Source of the DNA: an uncultured Candidatus Saccharibacteria bacterium
GTDB lineage: Bacteria > Patescibacteriota > Minisyncoccia > Sungbacterales > HO2-52-23
Assembly: GCA_964501445.1 (NCBI GenBank)
Contig: CAZCSJ010000003.1
Location: 1-51,230 of the forward strand
DNA: 51,230 bases
Reading direction: 5' to 3'
Made by a program: the position numbers and the translations under genes. The notes beneath the pieces were generated by a model. The model did no database searches. It was not told the DNA's origin and was given only the letters and a program-made list of their open reading frames with translations. Shown here piece after piece: positions 10,486 through 39,264 of this stretch. Positions within the stretch are counted from its first letter, which is position 1. Every line of letters begins with the position of its first letter.

Positions 10486-12330
10486 ATGCATCATTTTTCA
10501 AACCAAGAAATCGCGCGGATGCTCTTAGATACTGCCCTCCTCTACGAGATGGAGGGTGTTCAATTTAAACCCCGGGCATACGAGAAAGCCGCACTCGGGG
10601 TGGAGGCGCTAGATACGGAAGCCGCGGAGATCTATAAAAAAGGCGGCCTCAAGGCGCTTATGGAGATTCCGGGCGTGGGGCGGGGCATTGCCGACCACAT
10701 GGAGGAGCTTTTTACCAAAGGCCATTTCCGCGAATACGAGCGTCTGAAAAAGAAAATTCCGGTGAATCTCTCGGAATTGACATCGGTGGAAGGCGTGGGG
10801 CCGAAGATGGTGAAGGTGCTTTGGCAGAAATTGCGGGTGCGGGGTTTGAAGGATTTGGAGCGCGTGGCGCGAGCAGGAAAAATTCGGCGCCTCGCGCGAT
10901 TCGGTGAAAAATCCGAGCAAAAGATACTGAAAGGCATTGAGTTTTTGAAAAGTACTGGCGGCAGACGCGTGCTCGGCACTCTTCTTCCCGAAATCCGCGC
11001 GTTTGAGAAGATGATCCAGTCATTTCCCGAGGTGGAACGCGCGGTGGTGGCGGGTTCCGTGCGCAGGTATAAAGAAACGATTGGCGACATTGATATCCTT
11101 GCGGTTTCCAAAAAACCGGAGGGTGTGATGGAGCGGTTTGTCGGGTTGCCATCTGTCGCGCATGTCTATGCAAAGGGTCCTACCAAAACGAATGTGCGCC
11201 TGAAAAACGGGCTTGATGTAGACCTCCGTGTGGTGCCGCGCGAATCATTTGGCGCTGCGCTGAATTATTTTACCGGTTCCAAAGACCACAATGTGGCGCT
11301 TCGCGAGATCGCGATCAAAAAGGGATATAAACTTAACGAGTACGGATTGTTTCAAAATCAAAAATCAAAAATCAAAAATCAAAATGACAGATTAAAATTT
11401 AAAAATAAAGGGAAGCAAATTGCCGGCAAAACCGAGGAAGAAATTTATAAGACCCTCGGACTTCGTTATATTGAACCGGAGATGCGGGAGGATACGGGGG
11501 AGATAGAGGCGGCCCTTCGACAAGCTCAGGGTAAACGCGACGGATTACCGAAATTGATCGGGTACGGCGACCTCAAGGGCGACTTACAAATCCAGACCGA
11601 TTGGACCGATGGCGAGAATTCAATTGAAGAAATGGCGCTTGGCGCGCGCGCGGCGGGTCTTGAGTATATCGCGATAACCGACCATACGCGCTCGCTTGCT
11701 ATGACCGGAGGAGCGGATGAAAAGAAACTGTTGAAGCAAATGGCGGCGATTGATAAATTAAATAAGGAAAAGTTCTCGACACGCTCGAACAATATTCCTC
11801 GAGCGAAGTCGAGGGGGTTCCGTATTTTAAAAGGTGCTGAAGTGAATATCGGGAAAGACGGCTCACTCGACATTAAAGACGAGGTGTTAAAAAAACTGGA
11901 TGTGGTGGGCGCGGCAGTGCATAGCCACTTCAATTTGTCACGCGCAGAGCAGACGCGCCGCATCATCCGCGCGATGGAAAATCCAAATGTGGATATCATT
12001 TTTCATCTCACGGGCCGCATCATTGGTAAGCGCCCTGCGATTGAGCTGGATATTGATGAAATTATAAAAACGGCAAAGCGCACCGGCACCGTGCTTGAGA
12101 TCAACGCATTTCCGGACCGCGCGGACATCAAGGACGATTATATTCGCAAATGTGTGGAAGCGGGTGTGAAGATGAGTATTGATTCCGATGCCCATTCGGT
12201 AAAACATTTTGCGGTTTTGGAACACGGCATTGCGCAGGCGCGCCGCGGCTGGGCAGAGAAGAGAGATATCATTAATGCGTGGCCATTACAAAAAATGGTA
12301 CGGCTTTTAAAGGGAGTGAAGATGTATTAA
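10486..12330 (+). CDS. polX: DNA polymerase X family protein with C-terminal PHP domain (PolX)
   Basis: 614-aa ORF with HhH motifs (IPGVGRGIADH; VEGVGPKM), a Pol-beta-like nucleotidyltransferase (GSVRRYKETIGDIDIL) and a PHP domain (ITDHT...HSHFN...DSDAHS). It carries repeat-derived insertions. Confidence 0.9.
   Translation: MHHFSNQEIARMLLDTALLYEMEGVQFKPRAYEKAALGVEALDTEAAEIYKKGGLKALMEIPGVGRGIADHMEELFTKGHFREYERLKKKIPVNLSELTSVEGVGPKMVKVLWQKLRVRGLKDLERVARAGKIRRLARFGEKSEQKILKGIEFLKSTGGRRVLGTLLPEIRAFEKMIQSFPEVERAVVAGSVRRYKETIGDIDILAVSKKPEGVMERFVGLPSVAHVYAKGPTKTNVRLKNGLDVDLRVVPRESFGAALNYFTGSKDHNVALREIAIKKGYKLNEYGLFQNQKSKIKNQNDRLKFKNKGKQIAGKTEEEIYKTLGLRYIEPEMREDTGEIEAALRQAQGKRDGLPKLIGYGDLKGDLQIQTDWTDGENSIEEMALGARAAGLEYIAITDHTRSLAMTGGADEKKLLKQMAAIDKLNKEKFSTRSNNIPRAKSRGFRILKGAEVNIGKDGSLDIKDEVLKKLDVVGAAVHSHFNLSRAEQTRRIIRAMENPNVDIIFHLTGRIIGKRPAIELDIDEIIKTAKRTGTVLEINAFPDRADIKDDYIRKCVEAGVKMSIDSDAHSVKHFAVLEHGIAQARRGWAEKRDIINAWPLQKMVRLLKGVKMY
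11353..11412 (+). repeat. A-rich heptamer-stutter insertion, in frame in polX
   Basis: caaaatcaaaaatcaaaaatcaaaaatcaaaatgacagattaaaatttaaaaataaaggg encodes QNQKSKIKNQNDRLKFKNKG. It is about 85% identical over ~45 nt to the left arm of the intergenic palindrome at 12335-12444. Confidence 0.75.
11775..11815 (+). repeat. GC-rich hairpin element (CTCGAC..GCTCGA / TCGAGCGAAGTCGAGG family), in frame in polX
   Basis: ctcgacacgctcgaacaatattcctcgagcgaagtcgaggg encodes STRSNNIPRAKSRG. The right arm is identical to the one in argS at 21018-21033. A lone left arm (cccttcgacaagctcaggg) sits at 11513-11531. Confidence 0.7.
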
Positions 12331-15325: not shown

Positions 15326-15403
15326 GCGTACGGGTGAGAGGCGGATATACTGATTGATGCGGTATCGTTTTTGGATAGGATTGAAAATTAGGAATGGTAA
15401 CGG

Positions 15404-15769
15404 GGTGGAGGTGGGGAGATTTGAACTCCCGTCCGAATCGCTTCCTCCATGCCATTTCTACAAGCGTATCCCGAATCCGCCAGCTGGCGGACGGGAAAGG
15501 ATGTTTGATAGGCGTCGCGATCCGTATCAAACAGTCAGAATCGCCAAGCTCGATGTATGACACCGGTTATTTCCCATACGAGCGTGAGGAAGCCGATGGT
15601 CCGACGTGACGTCGGACAGAACCGATTTACGCTACTGCAAATGCAGGTCGCGCAGTCGGCATAGAGAATACGTTTGCACGTATGTGATGCGCGGTGTTGA
15701 TAAGGAAGGTGTCGCGCCCCTCCCGCTTGATGGTGTGGATTCTGTAATCCGTCGAGGCCTGTCACCCCC
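15404..15769 (-). ncRNA. ssrA: tmRNA (SsrA)
   Basis: On the minus strand the 5' end reads GGGGGUGACAGGCCUCGACGG and the 3' end reads GGACGGGAGUUCAAAUCUCCCCACCUCCA-CC. This gives a 7-bp acceptor stem with G3:U and a T-arm. The tag ORF is GCA AAC GUA UUC UCU AUG CCG ACU GCG CGA CCU GCA UUU GCA GUA GCG UAA, giving ANVFSMPTARPAFAVA. It is directly downstream of smpB. Confidence 0.85.
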
Positions 15770-16208
15770 GTTTCAATGTGCGCGCGATTTCGCGTTTTGC
15801 TTCGCGTTTTTTAATGACCTCGCGCTTATCCGTTTTCTTTTTGTGGCGCGCGAGGCCGATCAAAATCTTCACGAAACCCCGCTTACTATACACTTTGAGC
15901 GGGATGATTGTCAAACCTTTTGTCGCGGATTTTCCGATGAGCTCTTTGAGTTCTGCTCTCTTCAAAAGGAGCCGGCGCGAGCGCGTAGGGTCATAGCCCG
16001 CGGGCGTGTTTTTTGCCTGATACGGCGAGATGGCGGCGTTAAGCAACCATGCCTCATTTCTACGTATTACCACATAACTTCCGACGAGGGTGATGCGTCC
16101 GTTTTTTACCGCTTTCACCTCAAAACCCAAAAGTGAAATCCCCGCCTCGTATGTTTCAAGGATTTCGTAGTCAAAGTAGGCGCGTTTGTTGGAGGCGAAG
16201 TCGGACAC
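15762..16208 (-). CDS. smpB: SsrA-binding protein SmpB
   Basis: 148-aa ORF with typical SmpB sequence (NKRAYFDYEILETYEAGISLLGFEVK...LLLKRAELKEL...). It is adjacent to the tmRNA. Confidence 0.95.
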   Translation of the reverse strand: MSDFASNKRAYFDYEILETYEAGISLLGFEVKAVKNGRITLVGSYVVIRRNEAWLLNAAISPYQAKNTPAGYDPTRSRRLLLKRAELKELIGKSATKGLTIIPLKVYSKRGFVKILIGLARHKKKTDKREVIKKREAKREIARTLKRG

Positions 16209-16217
16209 GCAAAACAG

Positions 16218-16505
16218 TTAGCGATAGGTGTCTTCGCGGCGTAGACCGCAACGCGAGAGGAGTACTATGTGATTTGCGACATCATAGCGAAAACGAAAGC
16301 GACCCAATGCGAGTCGCCATTGACCATCACCGTGTGGTACTCCCTCCAGTTTCTTGATGTGGTAATTGTGGATGCGGTTATGCGGATCAGTTGCAAGGAT
16401 AGCGCGCGCCTGATTGAGGGTTGATCGGAATTCCGGGTGATGTTTTATGAGTTTGATAGCCAGCCGCTCGAATCGTGGAGTGGTAGTAATAGTGAAATCA
16501 GACAT
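16218..16505 (-). CDS. Type II toxin, RelE/ParE superfamily
   Basis: 95-aa product from the internal ATG (MSDFTITTTPRFERL...). The C-terminal signature is WRLALGRFRFRYDVANHIVLLSRCGLRREDTY. It overlaps the upstream antitoxin by 8 nt. Confidence 0.75.
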   Translation of the reverse strand: MSDFTITTTPRFERLAIKLIKHHPEFRSTLNQARAILATDPHNRIHNYHIKKLEGVPHGDGQWRLALGRFRFRYDVANHIVLLSRCGLRREDTYR

Positions 16506-16800
16506 TATTTTTTGATGGAAGCCGCAGGGGTACCTTTGTTTTCCTCGTATCGAGCTCTTTGAAAAATTCCTCAATAGGTCGGCTTTTACCTGCAAGATGT
16601 TCTTGATAGCTTTGTCGAATCTCCATTTGTATCTTCGGGTCTTGAATTTCCAAGTAGTCCTCAAATTCATCAATATCCATAATACCGACAATGGGGATGC
16701 CGTCTTTTTCCAGAATCACGTACTCTTTGTTGAGATGTATTTTTTTCACGACCGCGCCAAGATTGATTCGCGCTTTCGTGATGGGGAGGGTTTTGATCAT
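16498..16800 (-). CDS. Type II antitoxin, Phd/YefM family
   Basis: 100-aa ORF MIKTLPITKARINLGAVVKKIHLNKEYVILEKDGIPIVGIMDIDEFEDY has a Phd/YefM N-domain. It sits directly upstream of the RelE-like toxin and overlaps it. Confidence 0.8.
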   Translation of the reverse strand: MIKTLPITKARINLGAVVKKIHLNKEYVILEKDGIPIVGIMDIDEFEDYLEIQDPKIQMEIRQSYQEHLAGKSRPIEEFFKELDTRKTKVPLRLPSKNNV

Positions 16801-16904
16801 GGTGTGTAGTGTTAATTAATGTTGATTGATTTGAGTATAGCGAATGGAGTATACGCGGTCAAGCGGCATCCTCACTCCATGAATTTGCTTTTTCTTTGGG
16901 GACG

Positions 16905-16913
16905 TGGTATAAG
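16905..16913 (+). promoter_or_regulatory. Candidate extended -10 promoter (TGgTATAAG) of the DGR target gene
   Basis: It lies 91 nt upstream of ATG 17004. A homologous TGGTATAGA sits at the same distance upstream of the paralogous module at 38707. Confidence 0.45.
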
Positions 16914-17003
16914 AAAATCCAGTTCTTGGCGTCAAAGATTCTGCAACGGGCGGAATGGGCGCAAAAAAAGTCCCGTTGAGGCGGGACGGAAAGGAGAATC
17001 GTC

Positions 17004-17648
17004 ATGGCACAGCGTGTCGAGGCGAATCTGTATGTGGAGTTGGATGGACAACTTCAGGAAATCAAGCGACAACTCCGTCAATCCTCGGGGTATCCGTTCG
17101 ACCCCGAAAAACTGAAGATCGCGCTTCAAGGAATCGTCGAGGGGCGGTTCGATAATGGCAAAGTCGCCGAGTCGATCCTCGAGTTTGTCGGCACCGTCGC
17201 CATCCAGGCTCTCCCGAAGTTTGTCGCGAAGGATAACTTCGCGCAGAACACCGGGGAAAAGGCCAAAGTAAAGATCTCCTATGTGGGGGATAATTTCAAG
17301 GCGTGGTTCGGCGACAAGATCGAGGAGCCCGTGGCGGAGCATACGCTCCGTTACGCAAAACTCTTGAAGTCTTCGGTTGATGGTCCGATCCGCGCCGAGA
17401 TCGGTGCTGATCATGAGGAGACCACTCTGGGCGCGGTTCACGCGCTCATGGGCCTCCAGCCGAACGGCGAAGATGGCGTGTTGCTAAAGAACGGCTACGC
17501 CAACATCTTCTACGTGAAGGATGTTGGCGGAACGCTCCAGGCGGTGCGCGTCGGCTGGGACGATGACGGTTGGAACGTCAGTGCCAGCTCCGTCACGAAT
17601 CCGGGTGGGTGGGGTGACGGGTACCAGGTTTTCTCTCGCAATTCCTAG
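17004..17648 (+). CDS. DGR variable (target) protein, probable C-type-lectin-fold ligand-binding protein
   Basis: 214-aa ORF. The last ~37 codons (LQAVRVGWDDDGWNVSASSVTNPGGWGDGYQVFSRNS) are the VR matching the TR at 17991-18100. The first ~52 aa are paralogous to the ORF at 38707. Confidence 0.85.
   Translation: MAQRVEANLYVELDGQLQEIKRQLRQSSGYPFDPEKLKIALQGIVEGRFDNGKVAESILEFVGTVAIQALPKFVAKDNFAQNTGEKAKVKISYVGDNFKAWFGDKIEEPVAEHTLRYAKLLKSSVDGPIRAEIGADHEETTLGAVHALMGLQPNGEDGVLLKNGYANIFYVKDVGGTLQAVRVGWDDDGWNVSASSVTNPGGWGDGYQVFSRNS
17534..17643 (+). repeat. DGR variable repeat (VR)
   Basis: 110 nt align without gaps to the TR. Of 16 mismatches, 14 lie where the TR has adenine. Confidence 0.9.
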
Positions 17649-17990: not shown

Positions 17991-18100
17991 GCTCCAGGCG
18001 GTGAACGTCAACTGGAACGATGACGGTTGGAACGTCAATGCCAACTCCGTCACGAATCCGAATGAGTGGAATGACGGTAACCAGGTTTTCTCTCGAAACT
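17991..18100 (+). repeat. DGR template repeat (TR)
   Basis: This is the non-coding copy of the VR, rich in AAC/AAT codons (gtg aac gtc aac tgg aac ... aat gcc aac ... aat ccg aat gag tgg aat gac ggt aac). The overlapping ORF at 17971-18231 is judged spurious. Confidence 0.9.
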
Positions 18101-18109
18101 GCTGTATTT

Positions 18110-18140
18110 CTCCCGCTCTACCGAGCGGGAGTTTTGTTTT
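18110..18140 (+). terminator. Hairpin plus T-tract immediately after the TR, overlapping the avd stop codon
   Basis: ctcccgctc-tacc-gagcgggag followed by ttttgtttt. The loop contains the complement of the avd TAG stop. Confidence 0.6.
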
Positions 18141-18465
18141 CAATACCCTTTATCCACCCGCCGAGCATCTTGCCGATTTCGTTCAGCGCTTCCGAGATTT
18201 GCGTATATTTTTTAGTATCGAGAGTTTTTAATTCCCACGCCACCTGCAGAAAGAATTTTAATATATCTAGTTTGCCGTTTGCTTTTTGTAGTATGGGAAG
18301 CTTCTGTTCTTTGGACAGGTAGCTTGCGATAAAGAGAAGTTCTATTGTGTCGAGAAAAAGATTTTCAATTTTTGCCCCGATCGTGAATCGGGATTGCTTT
18401 GGGATGTGATTACGGAATACGTGCCATAGCTTGTATGCTGAAATAAATTTCTGAATAATAGGCAA
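18118..18465 (-). CDS. avd: Four-helix-bundle protein, DGR accessory variability determinant (Avd)-like
   Basis: 115-aa ORF resembling the 23S-rRNA-IVS / Avd family (...LDILKFFLQVAWELKTLDTKKYTQISEALNEIGKMLGGWIKG). It lies between the TR and the RT but on the opposite strand. Confidence 0.75.
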   Translation of the reverse strand: MPIIQKFISAYKLWHVFRNHIPKQSRFTIGAKIENLFLDTIELLFIASYLSKEQKLPILQKANGKLDILKFFLQVAWELKTLDTKKYTQISEALNEIGKMLGGWIKGIENKTPAR

Positions 18466-18500: not shown

Positions 18501-19499
18501 ATGAAATTGCAATTGAGCCATACGTTCGAAGATATTGTTAAAGTTGAAAATCTCTTGGAGGCATGGAGGGAATTTGTCCGCGGGAAACGGAGCAAGCGCG
18601 ATGTCCAAGAGTTTTCCTTTTCGTTAATGGATAGTATTTTCGCGCTTCACGGTGATCTCCGAAATCATACCTACTCCCACGGGCTGTATCAAGGGTTTTC
18701 AATCCATGACCCGAAGCCGAGGAGTATCCACAAAGCCACGGTACGCGACCGGCTTTTACATCACGCCATCTATCGGGCGCTGTATCCGTTTTTTGACAGG
18801 ACGTTTATCGAAGATTCGTATTCATGTAGGGTCAGGAAAGGAACCCACAAAGCAATGGCGTGTTTCAGGGAGTTTGGCTATCGGGTCAGTAAAAACAATA
18901 CGAAAACCTGCTGGGTGCTCAAATGTGACATCAAAAAGTTTTTTGCAAGTATTGACCAGGCGGTACTCCTCGAAATCCTCGGGCAGTATATTCCGGATAA
19001 AAAGATACTTTTGCTCCTGGATCGGGTGATCGGCAGTTTCGAGAGTACTGCTCCGGGCAAGGGTTTACCGCTTGGTAATCTCACCTCGCAACTTCTCGTG
19101 AATATCTACATGAATGAATTTGACCAGTTTGCGAAGCACACTCTGAAAGCCCGGCAGTATATCCGCTACGCGGATGACTTTGTGATTTTTTCGGAAGATA
19201 AAGAGCGGCTGGAAGAGTTGATACCGAGAATTGAGGAGTTTCTCGGAAGTCATCTGCGCCTCCGTCTTCATCCCGACAAGGTTTTTATCAAAACCTTTGC
19301 CTCGGGAGTGGACTTTCTCGGATGGGTGCATTTTCCGGATCATCGGGTGCTGCGCACCGCCACAAAACGGAGAATGATGAAAAAACTGGAGCAGTCGAAT
19401 TTACCCGAGACCCTTCAATCCTATTTGGGTTTATTGGGCCATGGAAATACCTATAAAATAAGGAAACAAATAGGGCGTGATTTTTCAGTTACTCTATGA
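18501..19499 (+). CDS. DGR reverse transcriptase
   Basis: 332-aa ORF with RT motifs (KPRSIHKATVRDRLLHHA; SYSCRVRKGTHKA), the DGR-typical motif-4 LPLGNLTSQLLVNIYMNEFD and the catalytic box YIRYADDFVIF. Confidence 0.9.
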   Translation: MKLQLSHTFEDIVKVENLLEAWREFVRGKRSKRDVQEFSFSLMDSIFALHGDLRNHTYSHGLYQGFSIHDPKPRSIHKATVRDRLLHHAIYRALYPFFDRTFIEDSYSCRVRKGTHKAMACFREFGYRVSKNNTKTCWVLKCDIKKFFASIDQAVLLEILGQYIPDKKILLLLDRVIGSFESTAPGKGLPLGNLTSQLLVNIYMNEFDQFAKHTLKARQYIRYADDFVIFSEDKERLEELIPRIEEFLGSHLRLRLHPDKVFIKTFASGVDFLGWVHFPDHRVLRTATKRRMMKKLEQSNLPETLQSYLGLLGHGNTYKIRKQIGRDFSVTL

Positions 19500-21416: not shown

Positions 21417-24400
21417 ATGTCTAACGAAAAAACAAAATTTAATCTCCCTCAGGAGGAAGAGAAAATCCTGAAATTCTGGGAAGAACAGAGAGTTTTTGAG
21501 AAAACCCTTGCGCAAAAGAAAGGGCAGAAGACGTTTGTATTTTATGAGGGGCCGCCCACGGCAAACGGCCTTCCCGGGCTTCACCACATGCTCGCGCGGT
21601 CGTTCAAAGACATCATCTGCCGCTACAAAACCATGCGGGGTTTTTATGTCCCGCGCCGCGCGGGTTGGGACACGCACGGGCTTCCGGTGGAAATTGAAGT
21701 GGAGAAACAGCTCGGGTTCAAAACAAAGCAGGATATTGAGCGCTACGGCATCGGGAAGTTCAATCAGAAAGCAAAAGAATCGGTATGGAAGTATAAAAAC
21801 GAGTGGGAGCAATTTACCCGACGGATGGGGTTTTGGATTGATTTACAGAATCCCTATATCACATATGAAACATCATATATAGAAACCCTTTGGTGGATTA
21901 TCAAAGAATTTTGGAAGAAGAAATTGCTCGTCCGCGATTTTAAATCCGTGCCATGGTGTCCGCGCTGTATGACAGGGCTCTCAAGCCACGAAGTGGGGCA
22001 GGGCTACAAGCGCGTGAAAGATGCATCGGTATATGTGAAATTGAAAATTAAGGGAAAAGAGAATGAATATCTTTTGGTGTGGACGACTACTCCATGGACG
22101 CTTCCGGCAAATGTTGCGGTCGTGGTAAATCCCGGAATTGAATACACGAAATTCAAAGTGGGAGACCAGTATCTCTGGTCCAGCCGGCCGATTGCAGGAG
22201 AGTGGGACGCAAAGATCGCGGTCGCGGAGCGGGCATCGGGCAAAACGCTTGTAGGTATTGAGTACGAGCCGCTCTACCGCGTGCCAAGAGAGTATTCTCT
22301 TGGAATTGAGCCGCCCTATCGGGTATTTCCCGCGGATTTCGTGTCCGTGGAGGACGGCACGGGATTTGTGCATATTGCCCCTGCGTTCGGAGAAGATGAT
22401 TTGAATTTGATGAAATCTGTTTATGCACGTCACCCTGAACGCAATGGTCATCCTGAATCCTTCGATGGTCATTCTGATCCGCCAGCTGGCGGAGAAGAAT
22501 CTCAGGATAAACTCCGTGAAGGATCTCGGGATCCTTCGGCCTCGCCTCAGGATGACGATATGCCTCGGGATGATGGACGCCACTTCTTGTATCCCATTCT
22601 CCAAACCGTCAACCCCGACGGCACAATGAAAAGAGGAGTCATCGGCGAAGGGAAGTTCGTCAAGGAGGCGGATAAGGATATTGTCGCAGATTTGAGGAGC
22701 CGCCACCTGCTCTATAAGGAAGAGCAGTATGAACACGAGTATCCGTTTTGCTGGCGGTGTGCGACCCCGCTCCTCTACATGGCGCGCGAGGCGTGGTGGG
22801 TAAAAACGACAAAAGTAAAATCCGCGTTGCTGAAAAACAATGACACCATCAACTGGATCCCGGCGCATGTAGGGCGCGGGAGATTTGGCGAGTTTTTGCG
22901 CGAGAATCGCGACTGGGCGTTTTCCCGCGAGCGGTACTGGGGAACTCCGCTTCCCATTTGGGAGTGCGGGAAGTGTGGAGAACGCGATGTTATCGGATCG
23001 CGCGAGGAACTTGCGGCACGCGCGGCGCATCCCCACAACCGCTACCTCATCATGCGTCACGGCGAGTCGGAAAATAATGTGAAGGGAATTTTAAATTTTT
23101 CCATTGCAAAAAACCATTGGCATTTGACACTTCGCGGGAGAACGCAGGTAGAAAAAGCAGTAAAAGCGCTTCAGAAACAGAGCGTTGATGTGATTCTCAC
23201 TTCTGATTTTCTCCGCGCAAAAGAAACCGCGGATATCATGGGACGCACATTTAAAGTTCCCGTGCGCACTGATGCGCGGCTGCGGGAAGTTGAGGATCGC
23301 GCGTTTGACGGCAAGACCGTGAAAGAGTATGGCGACTGTTTTGTTTTTCACGGCGCACGGTTTCGTTCAGAAATGCTCGGCCTTGAGCCAATGGCGCACC
23401 TCCGCGCGCGCGTGCTTGCCGTAGTTCGCGATTGTGAAAAGAAATATAAAGGAAAGACGATTCTTCTCGTGAGCCATGATTATCCGCTCTGGATGCTTAC
23501 CGCGGGCGCGGAGGGGCTCACGGATGAGGAGACGATTTTGCGCCACAGCGGCAAATGCACAGAACATTTTCTGCCCAATGCCGGAGTGGAGGAGTTGGAG
23601 TATCGCGTGCTCCCGCGCGATGAGACCGGCGCGGTGAATCTCCATAAGCCGTATGTGGATGACGTTACGTTTTCCTGCGAGAAGTGTAAAGGTACGATGC
23701 GCCGCGTGCCGGAAGTGGCGGATGTCTGGTTTGATCCAGGAAGTATGCCGTTTGCCCAGGCACATTTCCCATTCCGGCAAAATCGTCATCCTGAGAGAGC
23801 GAAGCGAACGAAGGATCTTGAGATTCTTCTCCGCCAGTTGTCGGATCAGAATGACAATGGCTATTATTTTCCCGCCGATTACATCTCTGAAGCCGTAGAT
23901 CAAACCCGCGGGTGGTTTTATACGCTCCTTGCCGTTGCGACACTCCTCGGGAAAAAGGCGCCCTATAAAAACGTGATTTCGCTTGGCCATGTGCTGGATA
24001 AAAATGGTCAGAAAATGTCCAAGTCCAAAGGCAATGTCGTGGATCCCAACGAAATGATGGGGAAATACGGCGCAGATGCGCTCCGCTGGTATTTTTACAC
24101 CGTGAACGCCCCGGGAGAGGCGAAACATTTTGACGAAAAAGATGTGGCAGGGAAGCTCCGCGGATTTCTGATGACGCTTTGGAATAGTTTTCTCCTCTTT
24201 GATACTTATGTGAAGAAATCTACAACCTACAACCTACAACCTAAAACCTTGTATATCCTTGACCGCTGGATTCTCACGCGGCTCGATATGCTGGTTGCCG
24301 ATGCAACCAAGAAACTTGATGCGTATGACATCACGGGCGCTGCGCGCGCGATTGAAGAGTTTCTTATTAATGATTTTTCTCAGTGGTATCTGCAGCTTTC

Positions 24401-25112
24401 GCGCCGCCGCCTCCAGCGCCCCCGCTCGCGCGCTGAAAAAGAAGAAGTTACGCGTACCACCGGGGAGGTGCTCTTCACATTGTGTGTGCTTACCGCGCCC
24501 TTTGCGCCATTTTTCGCGGAGGTCATGTACCAGCGTCTTCGCAAAAAAATGGGGCTGAAAGACGCGAGTGTGCATCTCGCGGCGTGGCCAAAACAAGAAT
24601 CAAGAAGCAAGAATCAAGAATTAAAGGTTTTGAAGGATATGGACATGATACGGGCGGCGGTTGCCGAGGGTCTGCGGCTTCGCGCAGAGGCGGGTATTAA
24701 AGTGCGTCAGCCCCTCCGGCGTTTTTCCACCGTACTCCCCAAAACGCATGCGCGCGCGGCAGAACAGATTCTCCGCGAACGGCTCAATGTGAAGGAAGTG
24801 GTGTGTGGCGCAAAAAAATCTGCGTTGGATACAACCATCACGCCGGAGCTCCGTGAAGAAGGAATCGTGCGCGAGGTCATCCGCAACATCCAGGAGATGC
24901 GCCGCGACCTCGGGTTGACACCTCGCACAGAGATCAGGGTGCAAGGAGTGGGGCCTGCCGCGCTCACCGTGCTTTTGATTCGCGAAAAACGGGAGATTCT
25001 AAAAGAGGCAGGCGCGCGCGAGGTGACCGCAGGAGGAAAGAAAGTCTTTGACGCGGAGCGGGAGATTCCCATTGACGGAGAAATTCTTTGGCTTGGCATC
25101 CGGCGCGTGTGA
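21417..25112 (+). CDS. ileS: Isoleucine--tRNA ligase with an embedded histidine-phosphatase-like domain
   Basis: 1231-aa ORF with HIGH region (PPTANGLPGLHHM), CP1 editing domain (WTTTPWTLPAN; GTGFVHIAPAFGEDD), KMSKS (QKMSKSKGN) and Zn-finger CXXC motifs. It also has about 200 extra aa with an RHGE motif and two repeat-derived insertions. Confidence 0.93.
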   Translation: MSNEKTKFNLPQEEEKILKFWEEQRVFEKTLAQKKGQKTFVFYEGPPTANGLPGLHHMLARSFKDIICRYKTMRGFYVPRRAGWDTHGLPVEIEVEKQLGFKTKQDIERYGIGKFNQKAKESVWKYKNEWEQFTRRMGFWIDLQNPYITYETSYIETLWWIIKEFWKKKLLVRDFKSVPWCPRCMTGLSSHEVGQGYKRVKDASVYVKLKIKGKENEYLLVWTTTPWTLPANVAVVVNPGIEYTKFKVGDQYLWSSRPIAGEWDAKIAVAERASGKTLVGIEYEPLYRVPREYSLGIEPPYRVFPADFVSVEDGTGFVHIAPAFGEDDLNLMKSVYARHPERNGHPESFDGHSDPPAGGEESQDKLREGSRDPSASPQDDDMPRDDGRHFLYPILQTVNPDGTMKRGVIGEGKFVKEADKDIVADLRSRHLLYKEEQYEHEYPFCWRCATPLLYMAREAWWVKTTKVKSALLKNNDTINWIPAHVGRGRFGEFLRENRDWAFSRERYWGTPLPIWECGKCGERDVIGSREELAARAAHPHNRYLIMRHGESENNVKGILNFSIAKNHWHLTLRGRTQVEKAVKALQKQSVDVILTSDFLRAKETADIMGRTFKVPVRTDARLREVEDRAFDGKTVKEYGDCFVFHGARFRSEMLGLEPMAHLRARVLAVVRDCEKKYKGKTILLVSHDYPLWMLTAGAEGLTDEETILRHSGKCTEHFLPNAGVEELEYRVLPRDETGAVNLHKPYVDDVTFSCEKCKGTMRRVPEVADVWFDPGSMPFAQAHFPFRQNRHPERAKRTKDLEILLRQLSDQNDNGYYFPADYISEAVDQTRGWFYTLLAVATLLGKKAPYKNVISLGHVLDKNGQKMSKSKGNVVDPNEMMGKYGADALRWYFYTVNAPGEAKHFDEKDVAGKLRGFLMTLWNSFLLFDTYVKKSTTYNLQPKTLYILDRWILTRLDMLVADATKKLDAYDITGAARAIEEFLINDFSQWYLQLSRRRLQRPRSRAEKEEVTRTTGEVLFTLCVLTAPFAPFFAEVMYQRLRKKMGLKDASVHLAAWPKQESRSKNQELKVLKDMDMIRAAVAEGLRLRAEAGIKVRQPLRRFSTVLPKTHARAAEQILRERLNVKEVVCGAKKSALDTTITPELREEGIVREVIRNIQEMRRDLGLTPRTEIRVQGVGPAALTVLLIREKREILKEAGAREVTAGGKKVFDAEREIPIDGEILWLGIRRV
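22429..22579 (+). repeat. Composite nested palindromic insertion (GTCAYCCTGA...TCAGGATGAC family), in frame in ileS
   Basis: There are three left arms (gtcaccctgaac, gtcatcctgaat, gtcattctgatc). The central palindromes are tccgccagctggcgga and gaaggatctcgggatccttc. There are three right arms (ctcaggataa, ctcaggatgac, ctcgggatgatggac). It encodes HPERNGHPESFDGHSDPPAGGEESQDKLREGSRDPSASPQDDDMPRDDG. Confidence 0.8.
23035..23630 (+). other. Histidine phosphatase (phosphoglycerate-mutase-like) domain inserted in IleRS
   Basis: NRYLIMRHGESENNVKG...LTSDFLRAKETA...REVEDRAFDG...ILLVSHDYPL carries the RHG catalytic motif and the downstream SH motif. It is flanked by the IleRS blocks IGSREEL and NLHKPYVDDV. 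Confidence 0.7.
23785..23855 (+). repeat. Palindromic GTCATCCTGAG...TCAGAATGAC element, in frame in ileS
   Basis: gtcatcctgagagagcgaagcgaacgaaggatcttgagattcttctccgccagttgtcggatcagaatgac encodes HPERAKRTKDLEILLRQLSDQND, just before the conserved PADYISEAVDQTRGWFY block. Confidence 0.8.
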
Positions 25113-35162: not shown

Positions 35163-35485
35163 AAAAAGGAGAGGTTTGGCTTGTTGATATTCCCATTGCA
35201 AACGGGCATGAGCAGGGAGGATCGCGCCCCGTTATTGTTATCGCCGATGCACGGGCGAGTGTCGCGATAGTTATTCCTTGCACCTCTAACCTGCAAGCGC
35301 TCCGATTCCCATTTACTCTGCAGGTGAGCCCGTCTCGCGTAAATGGATTCCACACCGCATCCATAGTTCTCGTGCTTCAATTGCGAGCGATTGACAAGAG
35401 ACGCTTGCATAAAAAAGTAGGCATTCTTGAGAAGAAAACGCTCAAAGAGATTGATGGGATGGTTAAAAACCTTCTCGATATTTGA
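35159..35485 (+). CDS. mazF: Type II toxin, MazF/PemK family endoribonuclease
   Basis: 108-aa ORF with MKKGEVWLVDIPIANGHEQGGSRPVIVIA...IPCTSN...AIDKRRL, the typical MazF/PemK pattern. Confidence 0.85.
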   Translation: MKKGEVWLVDIPIANGHEQGGSRPVIVIADARASVAIVIPCTSNLQALRFPFTLQVSPSRVNGFHTASIVLVLQLRAIDKRRLHKKVGILEKKTLKEIDGMVKNLLDI

Positions 35486-38400
35486 TTGTGCGCTATCTCC
35501 CGCAACAATTTGAGAAAAAGTGGCAAAAGAAGTGGCTCAAAGAGAAAATCTATGAGCCCGATTTGGCGCGATCCGCAAGCCGGCGGAAACCTTTCTATAA
35601 CCTCATGATGTTTCCGTATCCGTCTGCGGAGGGGCTTCATGTGGGTAATATGTATGCGTTTACGGGTGCGGACATATATGGGAGATTCAAGCGGATGCAG
35701 GGATATGATGTGTTTGAGCCGATTGGGCTTGATGGGTTTGGGATTCATTCGGAGAATTATGCGATAAAAGTGGGCAAGCACCCTGCGGAGCAGGCGAAAA
35801 TTTCAGAGAAGAATTTCTACCGGCAATTGCAGATGCTTGGTAACGGCTTTGCGTGGAATGAACGGCTCGAAACCTACGACCCTGAATACTATAAGTGGAC
35901 CCAATGGATTTTTATCCAGATGTTCAAGCGCGGGCTCGCGTATCGCAAAAAGGCCGCGGTGAATTGGTGTCCTTCGTGTAAAACCGTGCTCGCGGATGAG
36001 CAAGTCATCCAAAAGAAGCAAGAAGCAAGAATCAAGAATCAAGGCAAAACGGTTAGTGTTTGCGAACGGTGCGAGACAGAGGTGGTAAAAAAAGAATTAG
36101 AGCAATGGTTTCTCAGGATTACGAATTATGCCGACCGCCTGCTTAAGAATCTTGAGAAGATTGACTGGTCAGAGAGAATCAAAATCGCGCAGAGAAATTG
36201 GATTGGAAAGTCGGAGGGAGCGAAAATTGAATTCCCGCTCACCTTGAATAAGGATACCAATTTTCTGATATTGCACGGTTATACCGGTCGCGCAGATAAG
36301 AATTTTATCCCTTGGTTAAAAAGAGAACTTGAATCGCGAGGATTTGAGGTGCACGCACCCCAATTACCGAATACAGATTTACCGAAGGAGTCGGAACAGG
36401 TGGGATATGTCCTCAAAAAATGTCGCATGGATGAGCACACGATTGTGATAGGTCATAGTTTGGGTGGCGCGGTTGCGATGAAGGCATTACAGAAGATTAA
36501 CCGTCCTATTGCGGGGCTCGTTCTTGTCGCTCCTACGGTAGAGCCACGATTCCGTACTGGAGCTGAAAGACCGTTCTGGAAAACCTTCTCTTTGGATTAT
36601 GATTACAAAAAAATTAAAAAACTTAGCGGATTCAGAGCGATCATTTCGGATACCCTCGAAAAGGACAAACGAGGCGCTTACTTGGAGTATTTATCGCAAA
36701 GAATATCAGCGTCTTTGTATGAGACCAAGGCAGGAAGAGTGCATTTTACTAGCAACAAAGAACCTTTTGTATTGGAGCATTTAAGTGCACCAATAACCGT
36801 TTTCACGACCCGACCCGATACGATTTTCGGAGCGACATACCTTGTGTTAAGCCCTGAATATCCGTTCGTGGAAAATCACAAATCACAAATCACAAATCAC
36901 AAAGAGGCAGAAGCGTATATCAAGAAAGCTGAATCAAAAACCGAAGAGGAGCGGATAACGGAAGGACGAGAGAAAACAGGCGTTGAACTCAAAGGTATAA
37001 AAGCGATTAATCCCGCAAATGGTGAGGAAATTTCGATATGGGTTGCGGATTATGTTTTAGGCGGCGTGGGAACGGGCGCAATTATGGCAGTACCCGCGCA
37101 CGACGAGCGGGATTTTGAGTTTGCACAAAAATATAATTTGCCGATTCGGATGGTCGTCTGCCCGCACTATCCAGAACCGACATGTCCAGTACTTGATAAT
37201 GCGTATATAGGCGTGGGGCATCTTGTAGATTCCGGAAAATTCTCCGGCATGGATTCCGAGAGCGCAAAATGGGAAATTACGAAATTCGTGGGTGGCAAGA
37301 AAACTTCGCAGTACCGCCTGCGCGATTGGCTTATTTCGCGTCAACGTTATTGGGGTCCCCCGATCCCCATGATCTATTGCGAGAAATGCGGCTGGCAGCC
37401 GGTGCCGGAAAAGGATTTGCCGGTGAAATTGCCGTATGTGAAAAACTTCCGTCCGACCGGAACCGAGAAATCCCCGCTCGCTACCGTAGAGAAATTTTGG
37501 AAAGTCAGATGCCCGAAATGCGGGTCTGCGGCGCGGAGAGAGACCGATGTATCGGATACATTTTTGGATTCTGCGTGGTACTACCTCGGATATCTCCTCG
37601 GAACGAAAAGCGAAAAGCGCAAAGCGAAAAACTACAACGCAAAACTTAAAACCCTTCCTATTGAGAAATCCATACTGAAGCGATGGCTACCGGTTGATAT
37701 GTATATTGGAGGGGCAGAACATGCAGTTTTGCATTTGCTCTACGTGCGTTTCCTCGCAATGGCGCTTCATGATATTGGAGTTCTGAATTTTCCCGCCCAA
37801 GGCGGGTCTGCCTCGGGCAGAGAGGAGCCGTTCAAGCATTTCCGCGCGCATGGTCTTATCATCAAAGACGGCGCGAAAATGTCAAAATCAAAAGGGAATA
37901 TCGTAAATCCCGATGACTACATTCGCGCCTACGGCGCGGACGCGCTCCGGATGTATCTTATGTTTTTGGGACCGTTTGAGCAGGGGGGCGATTTTCGCGA
38001 TTCGGGAATGAAGGGGATTACGCGGTTTTTGGAGCGCGCGTGGAAGTTTGCGAATCAGGTCATCCTGAGTGCGAAGCCCGAAGGATCTCGAGATTCTTCG
38101 CCTACGGCTCAGAATGACAACTTGAAGAGGTTAATTCATAAAACAATTAAAAAAGTCACGGAAGATATTGAGGGGCTTCAATATAATACCGCGGTTTCGG
38201 CGTTGATGGTTTTACTGAATGAATTTGAAGAGCATCGGGATAGCGTAATGTATGAGGATGTAAAAATATTTCTGAAACTTCTCGCCCCTTTTGCTCCCCA
38301 CCTCACGGAAGAATTATGGCAAAAATTGCAAAAGCAAAAGAAGTTTGCGTCTATTCATACGGAGCCGTGGCCAAAATATAATCTCAAATTATTGAAAGAA

Positions 38401-38586
38401 GATACTTTTGAACTCGTGATACAGATAAACGGCAAAGTCCGCGGACGGGCGACATTAGCCGTCGGCGCATCCGAGGCAGAAGCAAAGAAAGCCGCGCTCG
38501 CACTGCCGCAAGTAAAACAATATATCTCCGGTGAGCCAAAGAAAGTAATCTTTGTCCCCAACAAGCTCATCAATTTTGTGGTGTGA
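35482..38586 (+). CDS. leuS: Leucine--tRNA ligase with an embedded alpha/beta serine-hydrolase-like domain
   Basis: 1034-aa ORF with HIGH-region variant (PYPSAEGLHVGNMY), CP1 editing domain (FTTRPDTIFGATYLVLSPE; AIMAVPAHDERDFEFA) and KMSKS (AKMSKSKGN). It also has a ~180-aa insertion carrying GHSLGG and several repeat-derived insertions. The start codon (TTG 35482 or GTG 35488) is uncertain. Confidence 0.93.
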   Translation: MIVRYLPQQFEKKWQKKWLKEKIYEPDLARSASRRKPFYNLMMFPYPSAEGLHVGNMYAFTGADIYGRFKRMQGYDVFEPIGLDGFGIHSENYAIKVGKHPAEQAKISEKNFYRQLQMLGNGFAWNERLETYDPEYYKWTQWIFIQMFKRGLAYRKKAAVNWCPSCKTVLADEQVIQKKQEARIKNQGKTVSVCERCETEVVKKELEQWFLRITNYADRLLKNLEKIDWSERIKIAQRNWIGKSEGAKIEFPLTLNKDTNFLILHGYTGRADKNFIPWLKRELESRGFEVHAPQLPNTDLPKESEQVGYVLKKCRMDEHTIVIGHSLGGAVAMKALQKINRPIAGLVLVAPTVEPRFRTGAERPFWKTFSLDYDYKKIKKLSGFRAIISDTLEKDKRGAYLEYLSQRISASLYETKAGRVHFTSNKEPFVLEHLSAPITVFTTRPDTIFGATYLVLSPEYPFVENHKSQITNHKEAEAYIKKAESKTEEERITEGREKTGVELKGIKAINPANGEEISIWVADYVLGGVGTGAIMAVPAHDERDFEFAQKYNLPIRMVVCPHYPEPTCPVLDNAYIGVGHLVDSGKFSGMDSESAKWEITKFVGGKKTSQYRLRDWLISRQRYWGPPIPMIYCEKCGWQPVPEKDLPVKLPYVKNFRPTGTEKSPLATVEKFWKVRCPKCGSAARRETDVSDTFLDSAWYYLGYLLGTKSEKRKAKNYNAKLKTLPIEKSILKRWLPVDMYIGGAEHAVLHLLYVRFLAMALHDIGVLNFPAQGGSASGREEPFKHFRAHGLIIKDGAKMSKSKGNIVNPDDYIRAYGADALRMYLMFLGPFEQGGDFRDSGMKGITRFLERAWKFANQVILSAKPEGSRDSSPTAQNDNLKRLIHKTIKKVTEDIEGLQYNTAVSALMVLLNEFEEHRDSVMYEDVKIFLKLLAPFAPHLTEELWQKLQKQKKFASIHTEPWPKYNLKLLKEDTFELVIQINGKVRGRATLAVGASEAEAKKAALALPQVKQYISGEPKKVIFVPNKLINFVV
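36235..36785 (+). other. Alpha/beta serine-hydrolase-like (YdeN/RBBP9-type) domain inserted in LeuRS
   Basis: NFLILHGYTGRADKNFIPWLKRELESRGFEVHAPQLPNTDLP...HTIVIGHSLGGAVAMKAL...GLVLVAP carries the nucleophile elbow G-H-S-L-G-G. It lies between the LeuRS blocks NWIGKSEGAKIEF and VFTTRPDT. Confidence 0.7.
38059..38118 (+). repeat. Palindromic GTCATCCTGAG...CTCAGAATGAC element, in frame in leuS
   Basis: gtcatcctgagtgcgaagcccgaaggatctcgagattcttcgcctacggctcagaatgac is 60 nt (20 codons) and encodes VILSAKPEGSRDSSPTAQND. Confidence 0.8.
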
Positions 38587-38608
38587 TTTTGTATTTTTTG
38601 CGGGTGCG

Positions 38609-38617
38609 TGGTATAGA
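38609..38617 (+). promoter_or_regulatory. Candidate extended -10 promoter (TGgTATAGA) of the wHTH gene
   Basis: It lies 90 nt upstream of ATG 38707. It is homologous in sequence and spacing to 16905-16913. Confidence 0.45.
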
Positions 38618-38706
38618 AATAGTTAGTTCTTTGGTCGTCGAGAGTTCCGCAATGGGCGGAACAGACCACCACAATATTGTCAGAAGACGAGGAAAGGAGA
38701 ATCGTC

Positions 38707-39264
38707 ATGATACAGCATGTCAAGGCGAATCTGTATAAGGAGCAGGATGCCCAGCTTACGAAAATCAAGCGGCAGCTCCGACAAAAGTCGGGCTATCCGT
38801 TCAACCCGCAGAAGTTGAAACTCGTGCTTCAGGCGCTCATAGAGGGGCGGTTTGACGGCATCAAGTCACCGGATGATTTCTTCTGCGCGGTGTTCCGCCG
38901 GAGCGAGCAGATCACTATGTGTAAACGAGTTATAATCAATTCTCACCTGCTGCGAATCGATGCATTTCAGCAGAAGGTCTGGGTGGACGATCAGCTTGTT
39001 GAACTGACCCCTACAGAGCTTCAGTTGCTGAACTACTTCCTGCAACAGCACGATCAGATACTGACCTGCGACGAACTAACCGAGGCAATCTGGAATCTCG
39101 CTCACACGGACACCCAGACATTGAAGGTGCACTTGTGCCGAATGCGTCGCAAGCTCTCCCGGTACCTTCCTGATTGTCCACGTCTCATTGGGTCCATACA
39201 CGGTGTGGGGTACCGATTCAACCTGTCCGGTCAGGACCGGCCTATCGCGGTCTCCGTCAAATGA
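38707..39264 (+). CDS. Orphan OmpR/PhoB-type winged-helix DNA-binding protein with a DGR-target-like N-terminal module
   Basis: The likely start is ATG 38707 (MIQHVKANLY...), preceded by ggaaaggagaatcgtc as at 17004. The C-terminus LTPTELQLLNYFLQQHDQILTCDELTEAIW...TLKVHLCRMRRKL...IGSIHGVGYRF is a trans_reg_C-type wHTH. There is no receiver domain. Confidence 0.75.
   Translation: MIQHVKANLYKEQDAQLTKIKRQLRQKSGYPFNPQKLKLVLQALIEGRFDGIKSPDDFFCAVFRRSEQITMCKRVIINSHLLRIDAFQQKVWVDDQLVELTPTELQLLNYFLQQHDQILTCDELTEAIWNLAHTDTQTLKVHLCRMRRKLSRYLPDCPRLIGSIHGVGYRFNLSGQDRPIAVSVK

Follow-up and report, generated by a model that had tools for sequence, protein, structure and literature searches.

A chimeric OmpR/PhoB-type regulator headed by the 5′ cassette of a diversity-generating retroelement target gene in a Patescibacteria genome

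Response regulators of the OmpR/PhoB family form dimers via the α4-β5-α5 face of their receiver domain (REC), and the isolated effector domains of PhoB bind DNA and activate transcription without phosphorylation. Here we describe a gene of this family in which the receiver has been replaced by a piece of a different kind of gene, the target of a diversity-generating retroelement (DGR). The window (i.e., the whole stretch of DNA that was analysed) is 51,230 nt of contig CAZCSJ010000003.1, assembly GCA_964501445.1, from an uncultured Candidatus Saccharibacteria bacterium (GTDB lineage Bacteria; Patescibacteriota; Minisyncoccia; Sungbacterales; HO2-52-23). It contains two homologous 5′ cassettes, each with a candidate promoter, a leader, a ribosome-binding site and a short N-terminal module. 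One heads gene A, the DGR target, and the other heads gene B, where the module is joined to a winged helix-turn-helix (wHTH) DNA-binding domain.

Gene B resembles OmpR/PhoB regulators such as PhoB, MtrA and RpaA (structures 1gxp and 2gwr) in that its C-terminal 113 aa make up a complete Trans_reg_C domain, placed C-terminally as in the rest of the family. Unlike them, it has no receiver, no phospho-acceptor Asp and no α4-β5-α5 face: only the last turn of helix α5 is left, and an unrelated 53-aa helical hairpin (hhalign probability of 3.9% against REC) stands in the receiver's place. OmpR-type output without a cognate kinase would be a property shared with Helicobacter pylori HP1043, an atypical orphan regulator that is independent of phosphorylation (PMC8345958), and with pseudo-receiver proteins (bioRxiv 10.1101/2025.06.23.661182), and by analogy a constitutive N-terminal element would supply dimerisation. 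However, those proteins keep a degenerate receiver fold, and gene B has none.

On the DGR side, the variable proteins Mtd (Bordetella phage), TvpA (Treponema) and TaqVP (Thermus), along with the "clade 2" DGRs of candidate phyla radiation (CPR) bacteria (PMC8144416), are matched by gene A in its variable region (VR), template region (TR), accessory protein Avd and reverse transcriptase (RT). Gene A differs in having a 51-aa head that is common to several VR-domain families and comes with a conserved initiation block. DGR proteins have been tied to regulation before, in cyanobacterial targets that join a kinase to a CLec (C-type lectin) domain (Vallota-Eastman et al. 2020, PMC7517822) and in DGR STAND "antigen sensors" (PMC10907252), and there too N-terminal domains are shuffled onto VR domains. 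In those systems, the signalling domain and the VR share one polypeptide, whereas gene B lacks a VR and has only the N-terminal module and expression signals in common with a target. Lastly, polymorphic families (e.g., LXG/WXG100-type toxins and phage receptor-binding proteins) likewise put a short conserved head on many unrelated C-termini, but the module has no sequence or structure match to those heads, no secretion or tail genes lie near it, and it is absent from the viral contigs of IMG/VR.

Gene B sits between leuS (upstream) and glmS (downstream). In what follows, homologous proteins carry P-numbers and homologous contigs or genome loci carry L-numbers; L060 and L061 are homologous target genes from two other metagenome lineages, and L001 contains the gene for P0122, a response regulator. 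The parts of gene B are:

38707-39264, + strand: gene B, module-wHTH chimera of 185 aa, an intact open reading frame (ORF) of 185 codons
38707-38865, + strand: N-terminal module, 53 codons, 84.8 bits with the module's profile hidden Markov model (HMM)
38866-38881, + strand: chimera junction; homology to gene A and L060 stops at 38865, homology to L001 begins at 38882
38882-39226, + strand: response-regulator-derived part, i.e., last turn of REC helix α5, linker and complete OmpR/PhoB winged-helix domain

We call gene B a chimera because its target-type homology ends at 38865 and its regulator homology starts at 38882. The cassette has replaced the promoter and residues 1 to ~114 (the whole receiver domain) of an OmpR/PhoB response regulator, with the break falling in the last turn of receiver helix α5 so that a complete wHTH remains. 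Trans_reg_C (PF00486) covers aa 96-171 (E 1e-18, profile positions 2-77 of 77), Pfam gives no match to the receiver domain PF00072, and NCBIfam response-regulator models cover the protein only from model position ~113-118 onward. A sequence-only reading of this DNA, made before the present analysis, had described an orphan winged-helix regulator; the lack of a receiver is borne out, but the gene is a truncated response regulator with its receiver swapped for the cassette.

A database of 5.8 billion proteins holds 235 homologues of gene B, and our statements about them rest on the 120 matches listed. All of these combine PF00072 with PF00486 except P0195, a module-only DGR-type protein which matches gene B via the module alone. 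The closest among the matches listed is P0122 (229 aa, REC plus wHTH), whose aa 117-229 are 73% identical to aa 61-173 of gene B. At the DNA level, 38882-39226 is 84% identical to positions 618-962 of L001, where the P0122 gene lies, and the flanks of the two contigs are unrelated. Among solved structures, the best relative of the effector part comes from PhoB, namely its DNA-binding domain (1gxp, E 6e-10). AlphaFold2 (AF2) predicts gene B mostly at a predicted local distance difference test (pLDDT) of 70-90, with hairpin helices at 7-24 and 34-45 and a complete effector fold: a four-stranded sheet (72-98), helices at 102-113, 121-129 and 136-153, and the wing (161-171). The junction helix (55-65) is of low confidence. 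No module-wHTH counterpart of gene B was found among the 235 homologues, the 147 listed module representatives or the 58 genome loci introduced below.

An assembly artefact at the junction could also join two unrelated genes, but this is unlikely here: the cassette of gene B is only 72-78% identical to that of gene A, so it is no collapsed repeat, and the reading frame is preserved across the junction. As for the module being a remnant of the receiver, MAFFT did pair the REC motif "DDYxxKPFsPrEL" with "GYPFdPekL" of the module, but the low hhalign probability given above spans 14 columns, and we rejected this candidate. The module's likeness to the REC motif "KPFxPxEL" was judged coincidental.

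Gene A, which carries the other cassette, belongs to the following DGR:

17004-17648, + strand: gene A, DGR variable (target) protein of 214 aa; 214 homologues with a common core of ~160 aa
17004-17162, + strand: N-terminal module of gene A, 53 codons, HMM 94.8 bits, profile covers aa 1-50
17534-17646, + strand: VR, which pairs with the TR
17991-18103, + strand: TR, 85% identical to the VR
18118-18465, − strand: DGR accessory protein Avd (PF22296 bAvd; NCBIfam NF033474, DivGenRetAVD, 92 bits against a cut-off of 80)
18501-19499, + strand: DGR reverse transcriptase (RVT_1, E 6e-25)

Locus A is a canonical CPR-type DGR. Within the window the TR has a single match, and gene B carries no VR. Fourteen of the 17 mismatches in the 113-nt TR/VR pair fall at TR adenines, the VR ends 2 nt before the end of the gene A stop codon, and CCAGGTTTTCTCTCG, identical in VR and TR, resembles an initiation of mutagenic homing (IMH) element by its position. 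Gene A itself has no Pfam, NCBIfam or PHROG match, and it shows no transmembrane (TM) segment, signal peptide or known domain. Its core is predicted at pLDDT <50 over aa 59-137 (AF2), and Foldseek found no match in the PDB at E<=1e-3, so a CLec fold is unconfirmed. In lacking a TM segment, a signal peptide and a known domain it agrees with the CPR DGR targets of Roux et al. 2021 (PMC8144416), who left it open whether such targets are truly not membrane-bound.

The two cassettes form the sole long dispersed repeat of the window besides VR/TR and a low-complexity family. The repeat finder aligned 16988-17152 with 38691-38855, ungapped, at 78% identity, and MAFFT carries the homology upstream to ~16885/38589 and has it break off sharply past 17162/38865. 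The cassettes therefore span 16885-17162 (A) and 38589-38865 (B); the sequence-only reading had placed the homology at 16905-17170 and 38609-38870 (about 265 nt), which is confirmed with these new limits. Each is made up of a candidate sigma-70-like promoter (−35 and extended −10), a leader with a two-tier stem-loop, a GGAAAGGAGAATCGTC-ATG block and the 53-codon module. Of the 101 positions aligned upstream of the ATG, A and B agree at 67, and the 19 bases of GGAAAGGAGAATCGTC plus ATG show no difference. The modules share 35 of 53 aa (BLASTP E 1e-22; an earlier hand count gave 34 of 52), while synonymous sites are only 44% identical. Past the module there is no protein similarity: gene A ends in the DGR VR and gene B in the OmpR/PhoB wHTH without a receiver, as had been noticed from the sequence. 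A six-frame profile search found two copies of the module in the window, those of genes A and B.

The cassettes' expression signals, numbered by the window, are:

16885-16913, + strand: candidate promoter of locus A; −35-like TTGCTT (16885-16890), 17-nt spacer, extended −10 TGGTATAAG (16905-16913)
16928-16962, + strand: leader stem-loop 1 of locus A; outer stem GCGUC/GGCGC, inner 7-bp hairpin AUUCUGC-AACGG-GCGGAAU (16938-16956)
16970-16987, + strand: leader hairpin 2 of locus A, GUCCCGU-UGAG-GCGGGAC
16988-17006, + strand: Shine-Dalgarno sequence (SD), spacer and start of locus A, GGAAAGGAGAATCGTC-ATG
38589-38617, + strand: candidate promoter of locus B; −35-like TTGTAT (38589-38594), 17-nt spacer, TGGTATAGA (38609-38617)
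38634-38671, + strand: leader stem-loop 1 of locus B; inner hairpin GUUCCGC-AAUGG-GCGGAAC (38644-38662)
38677-38690, + strand: leader hairpin 2 of locus B, UUGUC-AGAA-GACGA
38691-38709, + strand: SD, spacer and start of locus B, same as locus A

Both extended −10 candidates had been placed correctly in the sequence-only reading, as had the hairpin of locus A; that of locus B lies one base further on than was stated. The candidate promoter of locus B begins 3 nt past the leuS stop codon. A consensus promoter scan made no call for that of locus A, where the −10 hexamer lacks its last T. A, B, L060 and L061 can be aligned over the entire upstream region, in which the TTG of the −35, the TATA of the −10, a GTTCTTnGGnCGT block, the stem-loop and the SD-spacer-ATG block are common to all four; the last of these shows no variation at all.

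Within the ~85-nt leader, the two-tier stem-loop lies near the 5′ end. The four sequences, folded singly, take one shape (an outer stem of 5-7 bp plus an inner 7-bp hairpin) even though their stem sequences differ, with z-scores of -2.9 to -6.3. For locus A the minimum free energy (MFE) is -13.7 kcal/mol (z -3.2), and for locus B it is -15.4 kcal/mol (z -2.9; 25.9 bits with covariance model R1). From A to B, one pair of the inner hairpin shows a double compensatory change (A-U to G-C) and another a one-sided change (U.G to C-G). The claim that compensatory changes keep the hairpin thus holds for A and B, and also for the two other metagenome lineages. At the position of hairpin 2 of locus A, B, L060 and L061 have a hairpin of different sequence. 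Hairpin 2 of locus A, when read on the minus strand, has a T-run behind it and rates as an intrinsic terminator; it could stop antisense transcription from the Avd side.

Genes A and B may reasonably be expected to be co-regulated, because the promoter-leader-module cassette is homologous between them and the leader hairpin is conserved.

Three pairwise comparisons of the module bear on where the cassette of gene B came from (dS is synonymous divergence, and dN/dS is the ratio of nonsynonymous to synonymous divergence):

A versus B: nucleotide identity 72%, dS 1.0, dN/dS 0.23
A versus L060: nucleotide identity 80.5%, dS 0.66, dN/dS 0.20
B versus L060: nucleotide identity 80%, dS 0.50, dN/dS 0.34

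These comparisons cover just 159 nt, too little to fix the branching order. With BLASTN, B matches L060 at 83.5% over 182 nt and A matches L060 at 78% over 829 nt, and the leader of B is 69-70% identical to those of L060 and L061 vs 64% to that of A. Because B is closer to L060 than to A (80% vs 72% for the module), its cassette is no recent copy of gene A, and the duplication of the gene A head proposed from the sequence does not stand in that form. The cassette of B appears to fall within the subclade of A and P0002 (common "ANLY"), which would make its donor a target gene of that subclade, as distinct from gene A as it now stands; the cassette is an old paralogue or else came in from a relative. 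A synteny test showed no ancestral locus: the gene upstream of L060 is frr, not leuS, and the flanks of L001 are unlike the window.

The module represents a family of N-terminal domains in CPR bacteria that lacks annotation. When 1.84 billion cluster representatives (clusters at 50% identity) were searched exhaustively with its profile, it was found in 398 clusters at E<=1e-3 and in 187 at E<=1e-10. It is ~51 aa long (profile ~50 aa), and near-invariant positions are A2, V5, G7, Y10, G15, L17, E19, I20, R22, Q23, R25, Q26, G29, Y30, P31, L37, L41, Q42, E46, G47 and F49. From an alignment of 149 sequences, AF2 predicts a helix (7-25), a GYPFDP loop and a second helix (34-45) at pLDDT 82-92. The module and its initiation block appear to be new: the module has no match in Pfam, NCBIfam, PHROG or PDB sequences, and no description was found in the literature searched. 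GTDB species-representative genomes gave 58 module loci, of which ~45 have CPR/Patescibacteria in their record titles (Saccharibacteria, Uhr-, Magasanik-, Kaiser-, Yanofsky-, Wolfe-, Lipton- and Staskawiczbacteria, and Paceibacterota), 8 are titled "bacterium" only and 6 are titled Gammaproteobacteria, Bdellovibrionales or Nitrospiraceae. The family is essentially restricted to Patescibacteria.

A 1461-aa eukaryotic polyubiquitin matched the module via 7 weak repeats, which we regard as spurious, since AF2 gives a two-helix hairpin with no β-grasp. The resemblance of aa 14-40 to the helix 1/loop part of ubiquitin (an "IKxxIxxxxGIPxxxQxL"-like pattern) was judged coincidental.

What such a head might do is suggested in part by its position. 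In 106 of the ~150 representatives listed, the module starts at the first residue, and, like a trafficking domain, it forms a single short conserved head for many unrelated cargo domains. It could then be a tag that targets, exports or anchors variable proteins for display at the surface, in line with DGR targets elsewhere being mostly surface proteins (PMC8144416), and on gene B it would be irrelevant or cause mis-targeting. We consider this very improbable: the module is a confidently predicted amphipathic two-helix hairpin without any hydrophobic segment or signal-peptide-like feature, no secretion-system gene was found conserved next to module genes, and export would clash with the retained, intact DNA-binding domain if gene B is functional.

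The proteins headed by the module are DGR targets in many cases. Their post-module sequences fall into 20-24 BLAST clusters, of which Pfam recognises almost none. Of the 58 loci, 17 have an RT <=2 kb downstream of the module gene, and 14 of those 17 have Avd on the opposite strand, which reproduces the window's target-TR-Avd(−)-RT(+) layout. In 20 of the 58 loci, covering at least 5 C-terminal classes, there are VR/TR pairs whose mismatches are biased to adenine; in these, the TR copy lies ~450 nt downstream of the 3′ end of the module gene, and 74-100% of mismatches are at TR adenines. Module-headed C-terminal domains are thus cis targets of DGRs in at least a third of the genome loci. The sequence-only reading had considered that the module might prove a common known domain unrelated to DGR loci, but it is strongly DGR-linked by these counts.

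The core of gene A, conversely, carries this module in only 13 of the 120 homologues listed, the rest having different N-termini. Both halves therefore shuffle, because the module heads many C-termini and the core follows many heads, which is what Roux et al. (PMC8144416) suspected for DGR targets generally. At least 5 other unrelated heads recur among these core homologues (P0001-P0120), examples being "MDTMLSKALREFTTGPLNQLIVNLGG...EPCW", "MKYP..GDVEAVWNKLGG", "MSTALNEVPGWYIEFQ" and "MATTKQ..MVEFQDRF", none with a Pfam match.

Conservation of the leader is uneven across the family. Fourteen loci of several C-terminal classes have related hairpins whose loop reads C-A(N)NGG-G and which lie 45-75 nt ahead of the ATG; in this set, which was picked by hand, pairing is 93% and 6 of 7 pairs have a both-sided change. 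An unbiased hairpin scan found 7 in 59 upstream regions vs 0.73 expected. Covariance model R1, built on the hairpin, recovered its 14 seeds plus one weak extra match (L014), and because of this the leader hairpin is a subfamily feature, not family-wide. The whole-leader covariance model R2 gives high scores to A, B, L060 and L061 alone and, elsewhere, weak matches at the right place (E 0.15-0.5). Neither leader matched Rfam, at gathering thresholds or at E<=1. Conservation of the leader in other genomes, expected from the sequence, thus holds for L060, L061 and the 14-locus hairpin subfamily but not across the family.

The initiation block, AAGGAGnnT(C/T)GTCATGGC, is conserved far more widely. 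It is near-invariant across 58 CPR loci in the form AAGGAGnnT(C/T)GTC-ATG-GC, lying at 16993-17006 (A) and 38696-38709 (B) in the window and just upstream of each module gene in L002-L059. T[CT]GTCATG occurs twice in the 51-kb window, at the start codons of A and B, and the block was found at no other gene start there. For A, B, L060 and L061, RNAalifold predicts that GACGA and UCGUC around the SD can alternatively pair. An SD-enclosing stem was tried as a general reason for the TCGTC spacer and rejected, with stems of >=5 bp in 26% of cases vs 23% in control genes. The block is a nucleotide-level constraint that is specific to the module gene family and held across CPR phyla.

With one module and one set of expression signals on both genes in one genome, a working pair can be imagined. 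The sequence-only reading had proposed that the module brings the DGR protein and the wHTH protein together so that ligand binding controls transcription. The strong link of the module to DGRs fits this, as do proteins with tandem modules ~70-80 aa apart (P0241, P0242, P0311 and L056, 3475-4275), which are compatible with modules pairing and hint at self-association, and CPR DGR targets without signal peptides or TM segments could be cytoplasmic (PMC8144416). However, a working pair should recur, and we found no second fusion of the module to a DNA-binding domain in the sets searched above; furthermore, the module of gene B is altered at near-invariant positions (A2I, G15A and E19K) that are all kept in gene A. 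We therefore regard this model as improbable. A DGR-diversified sensor wired to transcription is not supported as a system, with gene B having no counterpart of like build, and although that reading knew of no described example, DGR target-kinase fusions in cyanobacteria are published (PMC7517822), so in general terms the idea has a precedent. A related idea, that the module is a docking handle into one cytoplasmic complex where ligand capture by the DGR protein is read out as transcription, is a long shot. If true, it would be a self-diversifying receptor coupled to gene expression, seen at its evolutionary origin.

The reading that we favour, by a small lead over even chances, is that gene B is a working chimera. 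Its expression would be driven by the signals that DGR target genes use, and its product would be a phosphorylation-independent OmpR-type DNA-binding protein without a receiver. The hairpin would replace the receiver in joining the effector domains (i.e., by pairing) or would dock them to the module's usual partner. In that case the module must have its role in the cytoplasm and does not serve as a signal for export. We read gene B as functional because its ORF and expression signals are intact despite a dS of 0.3-0.5, because dN/dS is <1 in both halves, and because PhoB effector domains are active without a receiver. Its promoter elements are kept, as are 19 of the 23 family-conserved positions of its module, and dN/dS for the module is 0.23-0.34.

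Alternatively, gene B may be an accident: illegitimate recombination broke a response-regulator gene, and what is left is an open ORF with no selected function that is drifting to loss. Several observations speak for this and weigh against the functional reading. Gene B is unique in all databases searched, and with no orthologue or parallel fusion found, selection for this singleton is not demonstrable. Its regulator part has a dN/dS of 0.49 against the P0122 gene (dS 0.30), which looks like relaxed constraint, and this value and the module's 0.34 against L060 are both above the 0.20 of A against L060. Its module keeps 19 of 23 family-conserved positions (deviations A2I, G7A, G15A and E19K), compared with 22 of 23 in gene A. 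The relative's stop codon is lost, so gene B runs on for 12 codons beyond the end of P0122, and the junction segment (aa 59-70) has a pLDDT <50 (AF2). Its neighbours are leuS and glmS, with no adjacent histidine kinase or partner gene. Two further points count against the pairing or docking step: the only genes conserved beside module genes are RT and Avd, with no partner gene, and the invariant polar residues (E19, R22, Q23, R25, Q26, Q42 and E46) suit a conserved external partner no less than they suit self-association.

Despite this, we consider an accident unlikely, though less so than any of the other alternatives to a functional gene B. Each half has diverged substantially from its nearest relatives (dS 0.3-0.5), yet 185 codons have stayed without a frameshift or stop. 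The SD-spacer-ATG block is identical to that of gene A, and the promoter hexamers and stem-loop are preserved, above the 44% identity of synonymous sites between A and B. Finally, dN/dS is <1 in both halves, and both domains are folded in the AF2 prediction.

Some other features of the window can be noted. Upstream of the DGR target are a tmRNA (15403-15769, − strand), smpB (15762-16208, − strand) and a Phd/YefM antitoxin (16498-16800, − strand) whose partner ORF overlaps it and is without a Pfam match; downstream of the DGR are argS and ileS. An antitoxin likewise lies beside the target gene in L061-L063, and the gene content of L061 is similar overall (Phd, target, a relocated smpB, then argS and ileS). 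The isoleucyl-tRNA synthetase (21417-25112, + strand) has a His_Phos_1 domain (E 5e-29) inserted in its catalytic domain at aa 544-706, and the same histidine-phosphatase insertion is annotated in that of L061. In the leucyl-tRNA synthetase (35482-38586, + strand), aa 261-370 are an inserted α/β-hydrolase (Ser_hydrolase/Abhydrolase) with a GHSLGG nucleophile elbow, just ahead of the editing domain. A 20-nt repeat, CCCTTCGACAAGCTCAGGGA, has 5 copies (<=3 mismatches; 0 expected) at 11513, 14085, 19745, 20960 and 39416, all on the + strand; two are within the argS coding region at "PSTSSG"-like low-complexity inserts, and one is between gene B and glmS.

Gene B offers a clean case of natural domain replacement, in which a receiver gave way to a 53-aa helical hairpin with promoter and leader carried along, and it shows a 5′ cassette (promoter, leader, ribosome-binding site and N-terminal domain) moving as one unit. 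If the module-wHTH fusion is functional, then the module must act in the cytoplasm, which is testable via what the module binds. Should gene B prove to be an accident instead, what lasts is the module family. In either case, the most durable result is this family and its cassette-like behaviour: a confidently folded module, common to several VR-domain families, gives CPR DGR targets a recognisable part.

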